This document shows, one piece after another, positions 3,130 to 12,710 of a stretch of 51,028 nucleotides of DNA. Below the pieces are notes generated by a model that worked only from the letters and a program-made list of their open reading frames with translations, was not told the DNA's origin and made no database searches. The DNA comes from Deltaproteobacteria bacterium HGW-Deltaproteobacteria-1 (lineage in GTDB: Bacteria > Desulfobacterota > Syntrophia > Syntrophales > Smithellaceae): NCBI GenBank assembly GCA_002840635.1, contig PHBN01000038.1:1-51028 (forward strand), read 5' to 3'. Both the position numbers and the translations under genes were made by a program. Within the stretch, counting starts at the first letter, position 1; each line of letters begins with the position of its first letter.

Positions 3130-5158
3130 ACCGCATCTCCTTTATAATAAGTGTAACGTCGATATTAGAAGACGTCGATATTAGAAGATCAATTATTTTT
3201 ATGCCGGCAAAAGGCAGTATTAACCCTCCTATGCCGTAAATTCCGAGATTCCGGCGCAGCAGAGCTGACGCGTTAGATGGAATATAACGCACACCGCGCA
3301 GCGCCAGAGGAATCAGTATGGGTATGATGATGGCATTGAAAATTACTGCCGAAAGAACGGCGCTTTCGGGACTGGAAAGATGCATGATGTCGAGTATTCT
3401 GAGCTGAGGATAGCCAACAATAAAGATGGCCGGGATGATGGCAAAATATTTAGCCACATCATTGGCGACACTGAAAGTTGTCAGCGCGCCTCGGGTTATG
3501 AGAATCTGTTTGCCGATTTCCACCAGATCCAGAAGCTTGGTCGGGTTGGAATCCAGATCAACAATGTTGGCGGCTTCGCGGGCTGCCTGTGTTCCGGCAT
3601 TCATTGCCACGGCGACATCCGCCTGAGCCAGCGCCGGCGCGTCATTTGTGCCATCGCCGATCATGGCTACCAGATGTCCTTTCTCCTGATAGTTGCGAAT
3701 CAGCTCCAATTTTGTCGCCGGTTTGGCCTCGGCCACAAAATCATCGACACCCGCCTCCGCCGCAATGGTGGCCGCGGTCATCGGGTTATCGCCGGTAATC
3801 ATGATGGACTTAATCCCCATTTGCCTGAGTTTGGCAATCCGGCCGCTGATACCCTCTTTGAGAACATCTTTGAGGCGAACCGCGCCGAGAATTTGTTCAT
3901 CCTGCGCAATCAAAAGGGGCGTTGAACCTTCGGCGGCAATAGATGCCACAATATCCTGTGCTTTGGCTGGCAATGGATTGTTCTGCGCTGAAATAAAATC
4001 CCTCACCGCGTCAAACGACCCTTTTCTGATTCGATGACTGTTCCAGTCGATACCGCTCATCCGCGCCTCGGCGCTAAAGGGAAAAAAGACAGCACCTTCG
4101 GGAGCCCGGATATCACTGCCGCGCATGCCCAGTTTTTCTTTTGCCAGAACAACAATACTTCTTCCTTCCGGCGTATCATCAGCAAGAGAAGATAATAACG
4201 CGGCATTGATTAATTCCTTCTCTTTCCCCTCCGTGAGAGCAATAAACTCCGTTGCCATTCTATTGCCCAGCGTGATCGTGCCGGTTTTATCCATGAGCAC
4301 CACATCGACATCTCCCGATGCTTCCACAGCCCGGCCACTTGTCGCTATAAAATTGTACTGTAACAATCTATCCATGCCCGCTATTCCTATGGCCGGCAAT
4401 AATCCACCGATGGTTGTGGGCATTAAGCACACCAGAAGGGCAATGAGCATGGCCGCGTCAACAGGTACGCCCATGTAAGCGGCAAAATATTTTAAAGTGA
4501 CAACCACAACGATAAATACAACAGTCAGCGCTATTAAAAGCAGATTGAGCGCCCGTTCATTGGGCGTTTTTTGTCTTTTCGCGCCCTCAACCATGCCGAT
4601 CATCTGATCGAGAAAACTTTCCCCGGGATTGGCGGTAATGCGAACGGTTATTTTTCCAGAAAGCACGCGGGTGCCCCCGGTCACACCGCTGCGGTCTCCT
4701 CCGTATTCCCGAATGACGGGCGCGGATTCTCCGGTGATGGCCGATTCATCTATCAGTGCCGTCCCGACGGCCACTTCACCATCTCCGGGGATCGTGTCGC
4801 CGTCTTCAAGAAGGATCAGATCTTCTTTTTTCAACTGCAGGGCGGATATGGTTTCTATACTGCCGTCATTCAATAGCCGTTTTGCTTTGGCCTCGGAGCG
4901 GTTCTTTTTGTCGGCAAAATTGGCAAATATAAGCGTGAACCACAGCCACAAGGTAATCTGCAAATCAAAGGTCATCCCGTGGCCGGTAAAAATATCATAT
5001 ATAACAATAAACGTCGTTGCGATGGTCACTATCTCCACAATAAACATCACGGGACTTTTAATCATCATCAGCGGATTGAGCTTTGTAAGCGATTCCTTCA
5101 GCGCGGGGATGATAAACTTTGTCTGCCAGATCTTGATTTTTTTCGATTTCATTTTCAT
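2999..5158 (-). CDS. kdpB: potassium-transporting P-type ATPase subunit B; 3' end altered by a 16-bp duplication (ancestral stop at 3142..3144)
   Basis: P-type ATPase motifs are present: [36 protein letters not shown]. The ORF as given reads 130 nt into kdpC. See the findings for the duplication and for a probable missing AEGRGKAQA segment. Confidence 0.9.
3156..3187. repeat. perfect 16-bp tandem duplication (ACGTCGATATTAGAAG x2) inside the kdpB 3' end
   Basis: Read directly: 3156..3171 is identical to 3172..3187. Confidence 0.95.
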
Positions 5159-5163
5159 TTACC

Positions 5164-6831
5164 TCAAAACGTCTTGCCGATAGCTAAAAGCAGGTGTTCC
5201 AACAGTGGCCCCAATGTTAAGACCGGGAAAAATGTCAACGCTCCGACAACGATAACAACCGCAATCAGCATGAAGGTGAAAAGCAGACTGGCTGTCGGAA
5301 AAGTCGCCACACTTTCTGGAACAATTTTCTTCTCGGCAAGATTTCCTGCAATCGCCAGGGCTGGAAGAATCGTGGAAAACCGTCCGATCAGCATTGCCAA
5401 AGAAGTTGTCAGATTATAAAAAACCGTATTGGCATTGAGTCCGGCAAAGGCAGAACCGTTATTGCCGGAGGCCGAGGCAAAAGCATAAATAATTTCGGAT
5501 AATCCATGCGGCCCGGTATTGCCGAGGCTGGCGACACCCGCCTGTGTGGAGACAGCGATACTCGACAAGATCAGTTGCAAAATAGCGGGAGTTACGATAA
5601 TCACCACCGCCATGACCATTTCCAGAAGCTCCAGTTTTTTACCCATGAATTCCGGAGTCCGGCCGATCATCAATCCTGCCAGAAACAGCGTCAGAATGGC
5701 ATAACTCAGCATGCCGATGAGGCCGGTTCCGACTCCGCCGAAAATGACTTCGCCGATCGCCATATTAAACAACAGAACTATCCCGCTCAAAGGCAGCATG
5801 CTGTCGTGCATACTGTTGACGGCTCCACAGGACGTAACCGTCGTGGACTGGGCAAACAAAGCAGAATTCACGACGCCGAATCGGGTTTCCTTGCCTTCCA
5901 TATTCATTCCAGATGCGATCCCTGCTTTTTCCAGCAGCGGATTGCCCCGCATTTCCGTCCAGGCAAAAATCCCCAGTCCGGTCAGATAAAGGATCATCAT
6001 GGCTGCAAAGACAGCAAAGCCCTGCCGCCTGTTTTTCAACATCGCACCCAGTGTGAAGGGCAGGGCCGCGGCAATCAGCAGCAGTCCCAGCACTTCTAAA
6101 AAATCCGTGAGCGGCGTCGGGTTTTCGAAGGGATGAGCGGAGTTGGTATTAAAGAATCCACCGCCATTCGTGCCGATTTGCTTGATCGCTCTTCCCTCCA
6201 AAGTCCTGGCCTCAATGGAAGGACTCAAGGTTTGTACAGCGCCCTGCGAAACCAGAATGAACGATAAAATTACGACAAGCGGCAGCAGGACGTATAAAAT
6301 ACAGCGGGTCAAATCCACCCAGAAGTTACCGATGGCCGCCGCTGATTTACGGACAAAGCCGCGGATAACGGCAATGACCGCGACAATGCCGATCGCCGCG
6401 GAAATAAAGTTCTGTACGGTCATGCCCATCATCTGCGTCAGGTAACTCATCGTCCGCTCGCCGCTGTAGGTCTGCCAGTTTGTATTGGTGCCGAAAGAGA
6501 CAGCGGCATTGAGTGCCGTATCCCAGCGCACAGCGCCAAATTTCTGCGGATTAAAGGGAAGCCAGCCCTGAATCAGTTGCAAACAGAATAACGCCACAAT
6601 ACCGATGACATTCAAAAGAACCAGGCAGAGAGTATACGTTTTCCAGGACATTTCTTCATTGGGTTCCACGGTAAATATCCTGTAAAGGAATCTTTCGACA
6701 GGCGCTATAACCGGCGAAAGAAATGTTCTATCGCCGCTGAAAACCTTCGCCATGTATATACCCATGGGATAAGCCAGGATCGTTATAATAAAGGGAAACA
6801 GAATGAGGCACAGCCAGTTACCTGTTGTCAT
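5164..6831 (-). CDS. kdpA: potassium-transporting ATPase subunit A
   Basis: 555 aa polytopic membrane protein with KdpA selectivity-filter-like motifs (NTNWQ, TNGGGFF, SCGAVN, SGNNGSAFAG). It lies directly upstream of kdpB. Confidence 0.93.
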   Translation of the reverse strand: MTTGNWLCLILFPFIITILAYPMGIYMAKVFSGDRTFLSPVIAPVERFLYRIFTVEPNEEMSWKTYTLCLVLLNVIGIVALFCLQLIQGWLPFNPQKFGAVRWDTALNAAVSFGTNTNWQTYSGERTMSYLTQMMGMTVQNFISAAIGIVAVIAVIRGFVRKSAAAIGNFWVDLTRCILYVLLPLVVILSFILVSQGAVQTLSPSIEARTLEGRAIKQIGTNGGGFFNTNSAHPFENPTPLTDFLEVLGLLLIAAALPFTLGAMLKNRRQGFAVFAAMMILYLTGLGIFAWTEMRGNPLLEKAGIASGMNMEGKETRFGVVNSALFAQSTTVTSCGAVNSMHDSMLPLSGIVLLFNMAIGEVIFGGVGTGLIGMLSYAILTLFLAGLMIGRTPEFMGKKLELLEMVMAVVIIVTPAILQLILSSIAVSTQAGVASLGNTGPHGLSEIIYAFASASGNNGSAFAGLNANTVFYNLTTSLAMLIGRFSTILPALAIAGNLAEKKIVPESVATFPTASLLFTFMLIAVVIVVGALTFFPVLTLGPLLEHLLLAIGKTF

Positions 6832-7104: not shown

Positions 7105-7215
7105 CCCCCTATATGCCGACGAGGTTAGCTGACGGGCTCGGACTGGGAAATGTCCTATTCTTCGTGTATCAGGCCAAATATTATTAGATCACACCCTCGG
7201 GAAAGAGATAGGCCT
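7105..7215 (-). promoter_or_regulatory. c-di-AMP (ydaO/kimA-class) riboswitch-like leader of the kdp operon; only the 3' conserved strand is recognised
   Basis: The minus strand at 7147..7115 reads CCCAGUCCGAGCCCGUCAGCUAACCUCGUCGGC. The core CCGUCAGCUAACCUCGU matches my recollection of the invariant 3' segment of the ydaO motif. An upstream GGGUGUGAUC resembles the GGGGUGAAUC element. The 5' half was not recognised. Confidence 0.45.
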
Positions 7216-7876: not shown

Positions 7877-8121
7877 TCCTCAAACCATGAAGGGAAAGAA
7901 AATAGTTGACGATTATTCATCATTTGGCTATGATGCCGCGGTTTTTTGGATGACATGCAGGAAAGCGGCCGTCTCGATTAATGAAGATGTATTGAGCATC
8001 ATTCATAAATTCACGGCTGGCAAGGCGGTAAAAGAAGCGTTGAATAAAATGACCGCCGGTGATATGTATCCCTAAGATCATAATGAATTGTTGAAATGAC
8101 ATAATTTAAAGGATGTAAAAG

Positions 8122-8505
8122 ATGACGGTATTTTTAACCATATTGCACATTGTTGTCTGTATTACCTTGATTTTAATCGTCTTGCTTCAGGCAGGCAAAG
8201 GCGCGAACATGGGCGCTGCTTTCGGAGGTTCAAGCCAGACCGTTTTCGGTTCAGGCGGCGCGGGCACTTTTCTGGGAAAGATGACAGCGGCGGTAGCGAT
8301 CATTTTCATGCTCACCTCCATTACATTGACCTACACGGCGTCAAGAAGACCGTCAGGTTTGATGGATAGCGCATCAGCTCCTGCGGCAAGACAGGCGGCT
8401 CCTGTTGCGCCCAAACCCGCAACATCGCCCGCAGCAACATCAGCAAAGGTACCCGCAGCACCGGCAACTGCTCCCGGTGCGGCACCTGCACCTGCGGCTA
8501 AATAA
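8122..8505 (+). CDS. secG: preprotein translocase subunit SecG with an Ala/Pro-rich C-terminal tail
   Basis: Two TM segments flank the Gly-rich loop LLQAGKGANMGAAFGGSSQTVFGSGGAGTFL. It is followed by tRNA-Leu(GAG), as in the E. coli secG-leuU arrangement. Confidence 0.85.
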   Translation: MTVFLTILHIVVCITLILIVLLQAGKGANMGAAFGGSSQTVFGSGGAGTFLGKMTAAVAIIFMLTSITLTYTASRRPSGLMDSASAPAARQAAPVAPKPATSPAATSAKVPAAPATAPGAAPAPAAK

Positions 8506-8591
8506 GATTTGTGCTTTTCTGTCTCCGCAATCTGCAAAACCAATCTGATGATCAGCAGGAACGCGGTGAATGAATTAGGGTTTAAGTTGCT

Positions 8592-8677
8592 GCCGAAGTG
8601 GTGGAATTGGTAGACACGCTATCTTGAGGGGGTAGTGGACAAAATCCGTGCTGGTTCAAGTCCAGTCTTCGGCACCA
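8592..8677 (+). tRNA. tRNA-Leu (anticodon GAG), class II with long variable arm, encoded CCA
   Basis: Acceptor stem GCCGAAG/CTTCGGC. Anticodon stem CTATC/GGTAG with loop TTGAGGG, giving anticodon GAG. T-arm GGTTCAAGTCC, discriminator A, then CCA. The architecture is almost identical to E. coli leuU. Confidence 0.95.
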
Positions 8678-8695
8678 TAATAATAAAGGGGGTTA
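8622..8695. repeat. left copy of a 74-bp direct repeat (tRNA-Leu anticodon loop to 18 nt past the CCA)
   Basis: Matches 11724..11797 at 73 of 74 positions. The single difference is G to A in the anticodon loop. Confidence 0.9.
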
Positions 8696-8727
8696 ACTGA
8701 TTCATTGGTTAACCCTCTTTTTCTTTT
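8690..8727 (+). terminator. rho-independent terminator after tRNA-Leu
   Basis: GGGTTAAC (8690..8697) pairs with GTTAACCC (8708..8715) across a 10-nt loop, followed by TCTTTTTCTTTT. Confidence 0.6.
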
Positions 8728-8851
8728 AAGCGTGTTTGGTCAACACTTTCCAGAAATCCTTCATATTGAGTAACAGCCTTCTGATACGTTCTTCAAACAG
8801 CAAGACTGCATGCTCCGGGATATTTGTCCCCGAGATGACTAAACTACAAAT

Positions 8852-8894
8852 CATTGAATATTCGGATTGACACTCCGAATATTCAATGTATAAT
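8852..8894 (+). promoter_or_regulatory. 15-bp perfect inverted repeat overlapping a consensus sigma70 promoter
   Basis: CATTGAATATTCGGA (8852..8866), a 7-nt spacer, then TCCGAATATTCAATG (8874..8888). TTGACA at 8867..8872, a 16-nt spacer, then TATAAT at 8889..8894. The next ATG is at 8902. Confidence 0.5.
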
Positions 8895-8901
8895 ATCAGC
8901 C

Positions 8902-10050
8902 ATGATTAACAGACCATCCTATATTGATAATTTATCGAAAGCGATACGGCGTTCACCGGTAACGGCGCTCCTGGGGCCTCGGCAATGCGGTAAAACCACT
9001 CTTGCAAGAATGTTTGGTAAAAACCGCGACACCGTTTATTTTGATCTCGAATCCCAACCCGATAAAATGCGTCTGCAAAATCCTGAACTCGCCCTGGGTG
9101 GTTTGAAAGGCACGGTTATTCTGGATGAAATGCAGAACAATCCAGAATTGTTCAACGTTTTGAGAGTACTTGCCGACCGTCCCGGAAACCGGACTCGCTT
9201 TCTTATTTTAGGCAGCGCATCGCCTGATTTGATGAAAAAGGCGTCGGAAACGCTTGCTGGTCGAGTTGAGTTTGTGGAGTTGACGGGGTTTACTCTTTCG
9301 GAAATCAATGCAAAAGATCAGCAAAAACTTTGGTTGCGTGGGGGATTTCCCCGTTCTTTTCTTGCGCAATCCAACACCGATAGCTTGGCCTGGCTTGAGG
9401 GATTCATTAGGACTTTTCTGGAGCGCGATATCCCGCAACTTGGTATTTCCATTCCATCCGTGGCCATGCGACGTTTCTGGACCATGTTGGCTCATTACCA
9501 TGGCCAGATTTGGAATGCTTCGGAATTGGGAAGGGCCATGGGACTTTCCGATAAGACCATGCGTGCATATCTCGACATTCTTACGGGTACCTTCATGATT
9601 CGCCAACTGATGCCCTGGCATGAGAACCTCGGTAAACGGCAGGTTAAAGCACCCAAAATCTATTTTCGTGATTCCGGGATTCTCCATCAATTGCTCAGCC
9701 TCAATGATTTTCACGCATTGAGCGGCCATCCGCGGGTGGGGGCATCGTGGGAAGGATTTGCCCTGGAACAGACGTTGAATATCATCGGGGTGAGTCAGGT
9801 TTATTTTTGGTCAACATACAGCGGGGCGGAACTTGATCTGTTTTTCCTGTATAAGGGAAAGCGATACGGTGTAGAATTCAAATACAGTGAAGCTCCTGTT
9901 GTGACAAAATCCATGCGTTCAGCCATGGAAACATTGAATCTGCATCATTTATGGATCGTTTACCCCGGGAAAACTGAATATCCTGTTCATAAAAAAATTA
10001 CCGTTTATCCGCTAAAAAATATTCCCGGTCTGATCAATCTGATTAAATGA
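8902..10050 (+). CDS. AAA+ ATPase with C-terminal DUF4143-like region (COG1373-type)
   Basis: Walker A GPRQCGKTTL and Walker B-like VILDEMQ. Length and layout are typical of the AAA_14/DUF4143 family. The start is moved from the track's TTG at 8854 to the in-frame ATG at 8902 because the promoter lies between them. Confidence 0.8.
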   Translation: MINRPSYIDNLSKAIRRSPVTALLGPRQCGKTTLARMFGKNRDTVYFDLESQPDKMRLQNPELALGGLKGTVILDEMQNNPELFNVLRVLADRPGNRTRFLILGSASPDLMKKASETLAGRVEFVELTGFTLSEINAKDQQKLWLRGGFPRSFLAQSNTDSLAWLEGFIRTFLERDIPQLGISIPSVAMRRFWTMLAHYHGQIWNASELGRAMGLSDKTMRAYLDILTGTFMIRQLMPWHENLGKRQVKAPKIYFRDSGILHQLLSLNDFHALSGHPRVGASWEGFALEQTLNIIGVSQVYFWSTYSGAELDLFFLYKGKRYGVEFKYSEAPVVTKSMRSAMETLNLHHLWIVYPGKTEYPVHKKITVYPLKNIPGLINLIK

Positions 10051-10268
10051 ATTATTGCCCGGGGTGTCGTAATGTCGAGAAGAGAGCTTCAGTCATGTTG
10101 ACTAAACCAGTTGCATTGTATGTTTAAGAACCCGTAAATATACCTTCGGCATTCGGCGCGTTCGGGGAACGCGCCCTACAATATTTCGCAGGGACTGTTC
10201 ACCGAACAGTCCGAATAATTTCAACTCATCATGCGTTTCATCTGTAAAATATATTTCAGGAGGGCGTC

Positions 10269-11390
10269 ATGAGAACAGCAAAACGAGTAACAATTAATAA
10301 TCTACTCCTTCAATTCTTAACGATATTCATTTTAATCACCTTGGTGACGTCTATAGGAGGCTGTTCTGCCATGTTAGAAGATAAAGATGCGATACAGGAA
10401 TTAAGTTTTTCCCATGATGGCAAGAAGGTGGTCTTTGACCGTTGCCGGAATGAAGGCTGCCAGATACAGGTCTATGATCTGGAAACGGGCGAACTTGCCG
10501 CCTACCAATCTTCGAAAAACGAGCGCTGGACCATGGGAAAATACTCCGATGACGGCAAGAAGATAGCTTTTTCTGTCATACCAGTAAAGCCCAAAGGCGG
10601 CCTTGATTTGGGAAACATGCAGATAGCCGTCATGGATGCCGACGGGAAGAACTACAAAAAAGTAACCACCGGTCCCGGCGCCAAGACAAGCCCGACATTT
10701 TCCCACAATGGGAAGAAGATCCTCTATGCAAAAGCCGCCTATATCAGAGAAAAGGGCAGAACCCCCGCCGCCCAGTATGACGCCTGGGAAATCAATCTGG
10801 AGACAGGCGCAGAAACACAGCTTACCTTCTGCAAATACTTTTACATGGGATACTTAAGCTATTTTCCCGATGATGAGCATTTTATCTATTGGGGAGACAT
10901 GCCGGATGAATATGAAGGAGTACGCATGATGGATCAATCAAACTTCAAAAACAAAATGATTGAACTGGGCAAAAAGGGCATGAATGTCATTGGCGTTGTG
11001 GTGATGAAGGGCAGGGAGATGATTCCGAGACCTTATCATTTTCCGCCGAATACCTTTGCGCAAAGCCCTCTTTTAAGCAGAGACGGTTCAAAGATGATTT
11101 ATGAAAAATCGCAATCAGGGGAATTTTATCTTTATTCGGAAGATGGGAATCATCGGTATGTAAGTGGAGGCGGGTCTATCAATTCCGCCGCCGTATCACC
11201 GAATGGGAAGTTATTGGCATTGATATCTGTCAGTTTAAAAATAAATACCTATACTATCCTAGATGGTAAGTTGCAGCAAAGCCTCTATCTGCCTTGTGCG
11301 CCGAAAAAAATTACAAATTGGAGTATTCCTCCAAAATATAAAAATATATATAAAATGATACCGGAAGAAGCATCACGCATTATTAATTGA
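10269..11390 (+). CDS. lipoprotein with TolB/PD40-like beta-propeller repeats
   Basis: AGGAGG lies upstream. The signal peptide carries the lipobox SIGGC. PD40-type blades recur (SHDGKKVVF, SDDGKKIAF, SHNGKKILY, SRDGSKMIY, SPNGKLLAL). Confidence 0.75.
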   Translation: MRTAKRVTINNLLLQFLTIFILITLVTSIGGCSAMLEDKDAIQELSFSHDGKKVVFDRCRNEGCQIQVYDLETGELAAYQSSKNERWTMGKYSDDGKKIAFSVIPVKPKGGLDLGNMQIAVMDADGKNYKKVTTGPGAKTSPTFSHNGKKILYAKAAYIREKGRTPAAQYDAWEINLETGAETQLTFCKYFYMGYLSYFPDDEHFIYWGDMPDEYEGVRMMDQSNFKNKMIELGKKGMNVIGVVVMKGREMIPRPYHFPPNTFAQSPLLSRDGSKMIYEKSQSGEFYLYSEDGNHRYVSGGGSINSAAVSPNGKLLALISVSLKINTYTILDGKLQQSLYLPCAPKKITNWSIPPKYKNIYKMIPEEASRIIN

Positions 11391-11487
11391 TAATGCATAA
11401 AGAATTTTATGTGCCCATCGTCAGGATAAAAGATGACAGTAGATAAAACTCATAGCAAAGTAAAAAATCTTTAATAAGGAGATTAAT

Positions 11488-11658
11488 ATGTCAGTAGAAA
11501 TATGGACCAATCCCAATGATCCAAAACCAATCAAAACAAAATACCCCATCGGCACCGTCGGCTTGGAGTTAAATAAAGCATCATTCAAGATACTCGATTT
11601 TTTATACGAGACTATAACATTTCAGTATCCTTCCCGCTGGTTCAGTCATGTTGACTGA
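11488..11658 (+). CDS. hypothetical 56-aa protein (below the ORF-track cutoff)
   Basis: AAGGAG lies 7 nt upstream of the ATG. Translation: MSVEIWTNPNDPKPIKTKYPIGTVGLELNKASFKILDFLYETITFQYPSRWFSHVD. The last codons lie in a repeat whose other copy (10089..) also encodes ...FSHVD-stop. Confidence 0.3.
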   Translation: MSVEIWTNPNDPKPIKTKYPIGTVGLELNKASFKILDFLYETITFQYPSRWFSHVD

Positions 11659-11723
11659 ACCAGTTGTTTTGTATGCTGAAACTCAAACCATGGGTTCAAT
11701 CTGCAAGATTGAACCCGCAAAAG

Positions 11724-11797
11724 TCTTGAGAGGGTAGTGGACAAAATCCGTGCTGGTTCAAGTCCAGTCTTCGGCACCATAATAATAAAGGGGGTTA
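11724..11797. repeat. right copy of the 74-bp direct repeat (pseudo-tRNA 3' half 11724..11779 plus 18 nt)
   Basis: The sequence runs from TCTTGAGAGGGTAGTGGACAAAATCCGTGCTGG through TTCAAGTCCAGTCTTCGGCACCA to TAATAATAAAGGGGGTTA, and no tRNA 5' half precedes it. Confidence 0.9.
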
Positions 11798-11858
11798 GCC
11801 AGGTTAAAGGTTAATCCCTTTTTTATTTTGAGTTCATTTGATTACAAATTAAAAAAAA

Positions 11859-12710
11859 TCAGAGGGTGTTTCCATCCAGGATTCGTTCCAGATCACTGCC
11901 GTAGCGCCGGTATTTTTCAGGAGACAGAATTTCCCGGAGGTGGTCCCTGTTTAACACTATTTCGGCGAGCTTATCGTCCGGCAGAAACATGAAAACCGCA
12001 CAGTTGGCCTCCCTGGCGTGCTCAAAACGCCAGGCGTACAGTTTTTTGATCAGTTCTCTCTGCTCGCGGGCAAGCGCGTAATACCCTTTTATTTTCGAGT
12101 ACCCACGGCGGTCAAACATTCTTTCCTGCCAGCTGGCGGCTGCGATTTTAGCAAATGCCTCGCCTGCGGCTTTTTCCAGACCTTTGTCTCGCAATTCCGC
12201 TCGCTGCTTTTCATAAAGCGCGGGCAGGAGGGTCACATCCTGGACGGCATAAGCAAGCTGCTCATCGGTCAACGGACGCTGATCCCACCGCGAACGCTGC
12301 ATCTTCTTGCTTTTTTTAAGTTCCACGCCAAGGAATTCCTTGATCATTTTTTCTAAAGAGAGCTGACGGAATCCTAGCAGCATGGCCGCCCTGTGTGTAT
12401 CAAAAATATTTTGAAATGCAAATCCATAGTCTCTTTTAAGCAGGCGGATGTCATTATCTGCGGCATGGAGGATTTTCACAACGGATTTGCTTTTAAAGGA
12501 TTTGGCTAAAAATGATAAATCCAGATCGGCTGTCACATCAAAGACATAGGTGGTAGGCGTTGCGTAGATTTGGATCAAACAGAGTTTTTCCCTGAAATAT
12601 CTGAAGGAATCGTATTCTGTATCAATGCCTAATATCGTAGCCTGACGCATATGTTCGGCGGCGCGTTTTGCGGTTTCGGGTGAATTTACCAGCAGCCAAT
12701 TCGTATTCAT
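11859..12710 (-). CDS. rnd: ribonuclease D-like 3'-5' exonuclease (DEDDy domain plus HRDC-like C-terminus)
   Basis: Exo motifs GIDTEYD, HAADNDIRLL and YAVQDV. 283 aa. Confidence 0.8.
   Translation of the reverse strand: MNTNWLLVNSPETAKRAAEHMRQATILGIDTEYDSFRYFREKLCLIQIYATPTTYVFDVTADLDLSFLAKSFKSKSVVKILHAADNDIRLLKRDYGFAFQNIFDTHRAAMLLGFRQLSLEKMIKEFLGVELKKSKKMQRSRWDQRPLTDEQLAYAVQDVTLLPALYEKQRAELRDKGLEKAAGEAFAKIAAASWQERMFDRRGYSKIKGYYALAREQRELIKKLYAWRFEHAREANCAVFMFLPDDKLAEIVLNRDHLREILSPEKYRRYGSDLERILDGNTL

Follow-up and report, generated by a model that had tools for sequence, protein, structure and literature searches.

The 51,028-nucleotide contig PHBN01000038.1 of Deltaproteobacteria bacterium HGW-Deltaproteobacteria-1 (assembly GCA_002840635.1), analyzed here in full and referred to as the window, carries downstream of secG a 3.1-kb islet that separates a leucine transfer RNA (tRNA) gene from rnd. 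The window is one whole contig (C224) of a metagenome-assembled genome (MAG) of 3.3 Mb that comprises 558 contigs and is 83% complete. In this work we examine the boundaries, contents and probable origin of the islet by comparison with related genomes and with independent assemblies of the same locus.

The tRNA-Leu(GAG) locus and its direct repeat

The window contains a single tRNA gene, tRNA-Leu(GAG), at positions 8592-8677 of the plus strand (ARAGORN), a call in which Rfam concurs (48.4 bits); no known RNA families other than tRNA were found by Rfam in positions 8000-12500. To the left of the tRNA gene lie nth and secG, the latter at 8122-8505 on the plus strand (Pfam SecG, E 3.8e-22), and the order secG then tRNA-Leu is conserved in all relatives examined. 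On the right, the islet is followed by rnd, encoding RNase D (11859-12710, minus strand; Pfam DNA_pol_A_exo1 and HRDC), and by genes for an alpha/beta hydrolase and a nitroreductase. Three genes occupy the interior, and Pfam analysis bears out the list given in a preliminary description of this DNA: an AAA_14/DUF4143 ATPase (8902-10050), a PD40 lipoprotein (10269-11390) and an open reading frame (ORF) of 56 amino acids (11488-11658).

The islet is delimited by a 74-nt direct repeat on the plus strand. As established with a repeat finder and pairwise alignment, 73 of the 74 positions are identical between the left copy (8622-8695) and the right copy (11724-11797), and the sole mismatch (G8629 versus A11731) falls at tRNA position 37, in the anticodon loop. 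The repeated block begins at tRNA position 31, 2 nt before the anticodon loop, and runs through the CCA end of the tRNA (position 86) and a further 18 nt; outside the block, identity between the two flanks falls abruptly. One end of the islet therefore holds the intact tRNA gene and the other, in direct orientation, a fragment of the same gene (11724-11779 plus the 18 nt), upstream of which pairwise alignment detected no trace of a tRNA 5′ half. Related terminator-like hairpins stand behind both copies, at 8685-8720 and 11787-11822. The preliminary description had reported both the repeat with its one mismatch and the kinship of the hairpins, and on both counts it was accurate. A check of the whole MAG for further copies of the repeat returned exactly two, those at the islet ends.

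The same locus was recovered from independent assemblies through an exact-protein look-up, which identified four other contigs (ENA ERZ27239240, ERZ27239241 and ERZ27239242; JGI 3300038334), and a Logan contig from SRR3546455 spans the islet interior. Both repeat copies, both junctions and the G/A mismatch are present in the four ENA and JGI contigs, which show 100% identity to the window over the islet, and the site is occupied in all five assemblies, drawn from at least three datasets. Compared with the others, the window assembly has several small deletions and is therefore not flawless: it lacks 42, 39, 135, 64 and 132 bp at positions 4910/4911, 6190/6191, 7167-7171, 10086/10087 and 15471, respectively, all of which the four other assemblies contain. 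The 64-bp stretch falls inside the islet, immediately before a decayed hairpin copy (D3a) described below. These five missing stretches are probably contig-specific deletions or assembly artefacts; three of them lie in frame, within kdpB, kdpA and a FecCD permease gene. Such flaws could be taken to favor the view that the repeat itself is artefactual, produced when strain variants of the tRNA region, two in number, were joined into a chimera. Since four contigs from four other assemblies, produced by a MEGAHIT-style procedure (ENA) and by JGI, carry the identical structure, this view is already refuted and we assign it practically no probability.

Relatives hold the site in its empty form. Scans of metagenome and genome contigs, a collection that excludes records of this genome, gave no exact match to the right junction or to the repeat core. 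A shorter tRNA pattern matched 11 Smithella loci in public contigs, and two Smithella MAG contigs, CAZXIP010000063.1 (L102) and CAYMYR010000003.1 (L101), display a compact arrangement of tRNA, terminator and rnd; rnd also comes directly after the tRNA in three genomes of Smithella, the window's own genus (G002, G005 and G013). When the islet flanks were joined in silico (8500-8697 plus 11800-12000), the joined sequence aligned end to end with both contigs (88.5% over 401 nt for L102 and 81.5% over 400 nt for L101), and the actual left junction ceased to align with L102 at about position 8691. From this end-to-end match it follows that what lies beyond the second copy on the right is native flank, and that the two copies enclose 3,102 bp of additional DNA. 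The native segment, termB (11787-11858, plus strand), consists of a terminator and the spacer before the rnd stop codon and is collinear with the empty sites L102, L101 and G005, where rnd adjoins the tRNA. The islet is an insertion relative to the empty sites of its relatives, and its boundaries are the two repeat copies. An empty secG-tRNA-rnd site, which the preliminary description had proposed to look for in related genomes, thus exists in L102 and L101 and equals the joined flanks. That description had also named two observations that would speak against an insertion, the same genes lying here in relatives without repeats and a second copy with its own 5′ half; we found no relative in which the islet genes occupy the secG-tRNA-rnd site, whether repeats are present or not, and a 5′ half is missing from the second copy.

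Elsewhere in Smithella the genes downstream of this tRNA differ, encoding a GGDEF protein, a MinD-like ATPase, a beta-CASP nuclease, a porin and CcdA. A genus-wide integration hotspot at this tRNA was considered and rejected: by eye, these genes are ordinary chromosomal ones, and no PF00589 match was found near those tRNA sites. Their diversity reflects synteny differences, not islands.

Integrase sequences at tRNA-Leu genes and the origin of the islet

Directly behind the left repeat copy, the minus strand of 8709-8792 reads RTYQKAVTQYEGFLESVDQTRLKEKEG-stop. We identify this stretch as a tyrosine integrase remnant, comprising the last 27 codons of the gene and its stop codon TAA (8709-8711), with an in-frame stop upstream at 8793-8795. 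It corresponds to residues 363-390 (...RKAVDQMEGFLKSVDQNVDQAPLKEREG-stop) of an intact integrase encoded by Smithella sp. SPRUCE 404 (G063), which matched the window over these residues in tblastn searches with 61% identity (E 0.03). When a profile of six integrase C-termini was run unfiltered against six-frame peptides of the 51-kb window, the remnant ranked first (E 1.1e-4, the next match scoring 0.045). At the DNA level, positions 8591-8781 are 79% identical over 205 nt to the tRNA and integrase 3′ end of an intact island in another genome of the set (G186). Pfam returned no Phage_integrase match between the repeats, where no intact integrase gene is present, and neither tblastn nor a genome search matched a G063-type integrase in the window's own genome, represented by a MAG that is 83% complete. 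The earlier statement that the islet harbors no recombinase accordingly holds for intact genes, but not for this 27-codon C-terminal remnant.

The stop codon of the remnant lies inside termA (8685-8720, plus strand; terminator scan), the island-borne terminator hairpin of the tRNA; this hairpin also stands behind the tRNA in islands with an intact integrase. The roughly 80 nt behind the left copy, designated termA-X, follow the tRNA in G002 and G021 as well, and G005 has the right-hand type. A mosaic generated by recombination of two haplotypes was considered for this arrangement and rejected, because segment X comes from the 3′ end of an integrase gene. X is therefore island DNA, the kind of sequence that an integration model predicts on the right-hand side of the left copy.

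The intact relatives of the remnant share its setting. In G063, nth, secG and tRNA-Leu(GAG) are followed within about 40 nt by a convergent gene for an intact integrase of 390 amino acids (Pfam Phage_integrase, E 1.9e-24), whose last codons enter the terminator behind the tRNA. Another contig of this genome contains a displaced tRNA-Leu 3′ fragment that begins at tRNA position 29; the regenerated gene has a different T-arm, as befits an island that supplies its own tRNA 3′ half. Family members, 59-81% identical to the G063 protein, are spread over many genera of the order, with matches at E ≤ 1e-30 in 36 of 151 genomes and 24 genera. At all five of the further loci examined, the integrase gene converges on a tRNA-Leu(GAG) or tRNA-Leu(CAG) gene, and the intact homologues in G063, G186, G128, G037, G066 and G161 lie convergently at about 15-45 nt from tRNA-Leu(GAG/CAG). 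Two islands could be delimited completely: that of G186 (C72:28200-49599; L117, L123) measures 21.3 kb and has a 55-nt perfect attachment (att) repeat, and that of G037 (C8, ~121545-193093; L115, L120-L122) measures 71.5 kb and has a 56-nt perfect att repeat. Both repeats extend from the anticodon loop to 0-1 nt past the tRNA end, and the left boundary of the islet repeat falls within 0-4 nt of the att boundary in four family islands with an intact integrase.

Truncated integrases are also found at such sites. In seven of the 41 loci examined, truncated C-termini lie 13-74 nt from tRNA-Leu(GAG), and in G186 an older C-terminal stub stands just beyond the right repeat of the complete island, which indicates tandem or serial integration. 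As a separate observation, G063 encodes a second family integrase (66% identical; L114, contig C77, 274-1580) that adjoins another tRNA-Leu-like gene, and both of its integrase contigs begin 273 bp before the integrase start codon, suggesting a repeat common to the interiors of two islands. By sequence comparison, the remnant comes from a family of integrases whose use of this tRNA, and of this sublocation within it, is demonstrated.

We conclude, with high though not complete confidence, that the islet is what decay has left of a genomic island inserted by a tyrosine integrase into tRNA-Leu(GAG) downstream of secG. The preliminary description had proposed a tyrosine-integrase element that entered an anticodon-loop attB site and later lost its mobility genes, and this proposal is supported by the empty sites, the integrase remnant and the intact islands with the same att start. 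Recombination would have occurred within the anticodon loop or beside it, the incoming island bringing its own tRNA 3′ part, a terminator and an integrase gene reading towards the tRNA. The tRNA gene would thereby have been regenerated at the left end, with a native 5′ part and island-supplied sequence from the anticodon loop onward, and the native 3′ fragment with its native terminator would have been displaced 3.1 kb rightward, to its place beside rnd. Later deletions would have taken nearly the whole island, including all of the integrase except its last 27 codons. Overlap with the terminator that the tRNA now uses is the probable reason why this stub has persisted.

Three observations weigh against this history. 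The remnant is short, and its scores taken alone are modest (E 0.03 in tblastn and 1.1e-4 with the profile); the weight of its identification lies in position, strand and DNA-level homology. The islet repeat extends 18 nt past the tRNA end, against 0-1 nt in the intact islands, an extension for which related island and native terminators, or gene conversion, are possible causes. Finally, G002 has the left remnant (termA and integrase stub) joined to the hairpin repeat described below and to rnd, with no right repeat, so that the history needs additional deletions, which we can only infer; plausibly these occurred between copies of the hairpin repeat, such as the one within the 3′ end of rnd in G005.

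Some of the same features could be attributed to a second copy formed without site-specific recombination, either by local duplication of the tRNA 3′ part or by illegitimate recombination with a related strain, the genes having arrived by other means. The flanks do resemble different relatives (termA and the stub are like G002 and G021, termB and the spacer like G005 and L102), the hairpin repeat abuts the right copy exactly and the repeat runs 18 nt beyond the tRNA. Site-specific integration, however, predicts what is found on either side, with integrase-gene DNA to the right of the left copy and native flank to the right of the right copy, and it matches both the abrupt drop of identity at the block ends and the agreement of the left boundary with the att boundaries of the four family islands. 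The integrase remnant and the matching att anatomy largely refute an origin by duplication or illegitimate recombination, which we regard as very improbable.

Modules and repeats within the islet

The ATPase gene (8902-10050, plus strand) forms part of a self-contained 1.2-kb module (8852-10050). The module opens with a perfect palindrome of 15-bp arms (8852-8894, plus strand) that contains a sigma-70 promoter matching the consensus at 12 of 12 positions (TTGACA at 8867-8872 and TATAAT at 8889-8894), and the ATG start codon follows 7 nt past the -10 box. Orthologues with 81-85% amino acid identity reside at unrelated loci in six Smithella genomes; at five of these loci the homologous stretch has the palindrome as its exact starting point and the stop codon as its end, and the surrounding contexts are all different. 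The broader ATPase family is multi-copy and patchily distributed in the genus. In PADLOC the protein matched seven PDC-S01 models (best E 7.7e-80), and it fits this candidate single-gene defence group of AAA_14/DUF4143, COG1373-like ATPases. PDC-S01 is a candidate family, a term absent from the one paper searched for it, and the defence role of the islet ATPase is a prediction.

The second gene (10269-11390, plus strand) encodes a lipoprotein with a PD40/TolB-like beta-propeller (Pfam PD40). Two paralogues with 63-65% identity are present in the same genome (contigs C78 and C42) and more occur in relatives. The 56-amino-acid ORF (11488-11658, plus strand) appears to be a partner of the PD40 gene, for a homologue (42% over 48 amino acids) comes after the PD40 orthologue in G014. 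This ORF has no Pfam match, and PADLOC matched neither it nor the PD40 protein.

The stop codon of the 56-amino-acid ORF lies within the first hairpin of a dispersed two-hairpin repeat of about 87 nt, a full copy of which (11633-11722, plus strand) abuts the right att copy. Hairpin 1 (11636-11664) has a 12-bp stem with a 3-nt loop and hairpin 2 (11692-11716) a 10-11-bp stem, with a fold z-score of -7.4, and a decayed copy of hairpin 1 (D3a) lies at 10088-10127 on the plus strand. Copies of the PD40 gene are flanked on both sides by hairpin 1 at four loci. Several Smithella genomes carry the repeat in multiple copies, the highest count for one genome being 14 matches, and further copies exist in the window's own genome (C42:4238-4323, 5526-5556 and 6028-6059; C78:18801-18862; C491:3060-3125). 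It corresponds to no Rfam family. Integron-like attC cassettes were considered for this repeat and dropped, as it combines a perfect 12-bp stem and 3-nt loop with a second hairpin and, by eye, has no GTTRRRY core. Also by eye, the extreme 3′ end of rnd in G005 (L035, C333, 8700-9020) contains a two-hairpin repeat copy that is itself split by about 230 bp and alters the last codons of the gene, and G002 has the same rnd end.

The intact islands have no genes in common with the islet. Since its modules occur elsewhere in the genus and are absent from those islands, the content would not derive from intact island relatives; it looks like a set of independently shuffled modules that replaced the original island body. 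What the islet now holds, namely the self-promoted ATPase module, the cassette of PD40 lipoprotein and 56-amino-acid ORF and the copies of the dispersed repeat, is met with in other contexts in the genus. A further-reaching reading would make the two-hairpin repeat the recombination or insertion site of an undescribed Smithella cassette-shuffling system that moves PD40-lipoprotein genes, and perhaps the PDC-S01 module, into decaying islands, or would have the islet still mobilized in trans by incoming tRNA-Leu islands; we give this reading a low probability.

Mobility, related elements and significance

As far as can be judged from its sequence, the islet is most likely a fixed, immobile fossil. 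It has no integrase and no recognizable right island arm, the right copy bears a mismatch in the anticodon loop and all five assemblies show an occupied site, which together favor immobility. The left arm, composed of terminator and integrase 3′ end, has been kept, and the dispersed repeat of hairpins 1 and 2 now takes the place of the right arm; the right end of the islet shows no similarity to the right arms of the G063, G186 or G037 islands.

The preliminary description had also raised the possibility of a satellite mobilized in trans. Such an att-flanked element would lack an integrase and be moved by one of the same family, supplied from another locus or by an incoming island, in the manner of a cis-mobilisable element (CIME) or satellite. 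Several features are compatible with it: the repeat copies are nearly identical, cognate-family integrases are common in the order, and the new island of G186 stands in tandem beside an old remnant, an accretion from which it can be argued that an incoming island could in principle recombine with the outer att site. The evidence from the islet itself disfavors the idea, given that no family integrase was found in its own 83%-complete MAG, that the DNA beside the right copy is a dispersed hairpin repeat unlike the right arms of intact islands, that the one mismatch falls in the presumed crossover region and that the site is occupied in every assembly. We accordingly consider a satellite still mobilized in trans quite improbable and rate the immobile fossil far above it.

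In tRNA islands, a regenerated tRNA gene and a displaced fragment mark the island ends, and one class of att sites, designated A, is centered on the anticodon (Hudson et al. 2015, PMC4383910). The islet resembles the Islander type of tRNA-gene island (Williams 2002, NAR 30:866, as cited in PMC4383910) in its regenerated tRNA gene and displaced direct 3′ fragment, in the start of its repeat at the anticodon loop and in the empty sites of its relatives. Islander-type islands have an integrase gene next to the tRNA, a position at which the islet agrees but with the gene cut to 27 codons. It departs from the type in measuring 3.1 kb, in a repeat that reaches 18 nt past the tRNA and in the replacement of its right arm by a dispersed repeat.

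Two further systems offer parallels. CIMEs, exemplified by those related to the ICESt elements of Streptococcus thermophilus, are remnants of integrative elements that are flanked by att sites and lack recombination genes. The islet is like them in its att bounds, in its lack of an intact integrase and in its probable origin by deletion from an integrase-bearing element, and the tandem of old remnant and newer island in G186 resembles CIME accretion; unlike CIMEs, the islet has no cognate integrase found in its genome, and its arm sequences appear lost. Haemophilus phage HP1 integrates into a tRNA-Leu gene at the anticodon stem-loop, where a block of identity reaching to the 3′ end restores the gene. 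By description, the islet shares with HP1 the tyrosine integrase, the tRNA-Leu target and the identity block from anticodon to 3′ end; it differs in belonging to an unrelated host lineage, and the Smithella islands have no evident phage genes in the parts examined.

The islet is an ordinary element of a well-known kind, and it leaves the current understanding of island biology unchanged. Its value is that of a well-bounded example of how a tRNA-targeting island decays, in which the survivors are the att repeats, the island-supplied tRNA 3′ half, the terminator and an integrase stub that overlaps this terminator. For annotation, the analysis explains an apparently integrase-less islet and flags a candidate defence ATPase as its cargo. 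A further outcome is the definition of an integrase family that is specific for tRNA-Leu and distributed across an order of syntrophic bacteria. The seven loci with truncated integrase ends, together with the one tandem accretion, suggest that this tRNA gene may have its 3′ half and terminator replaced again and again as islands integrate and decay.

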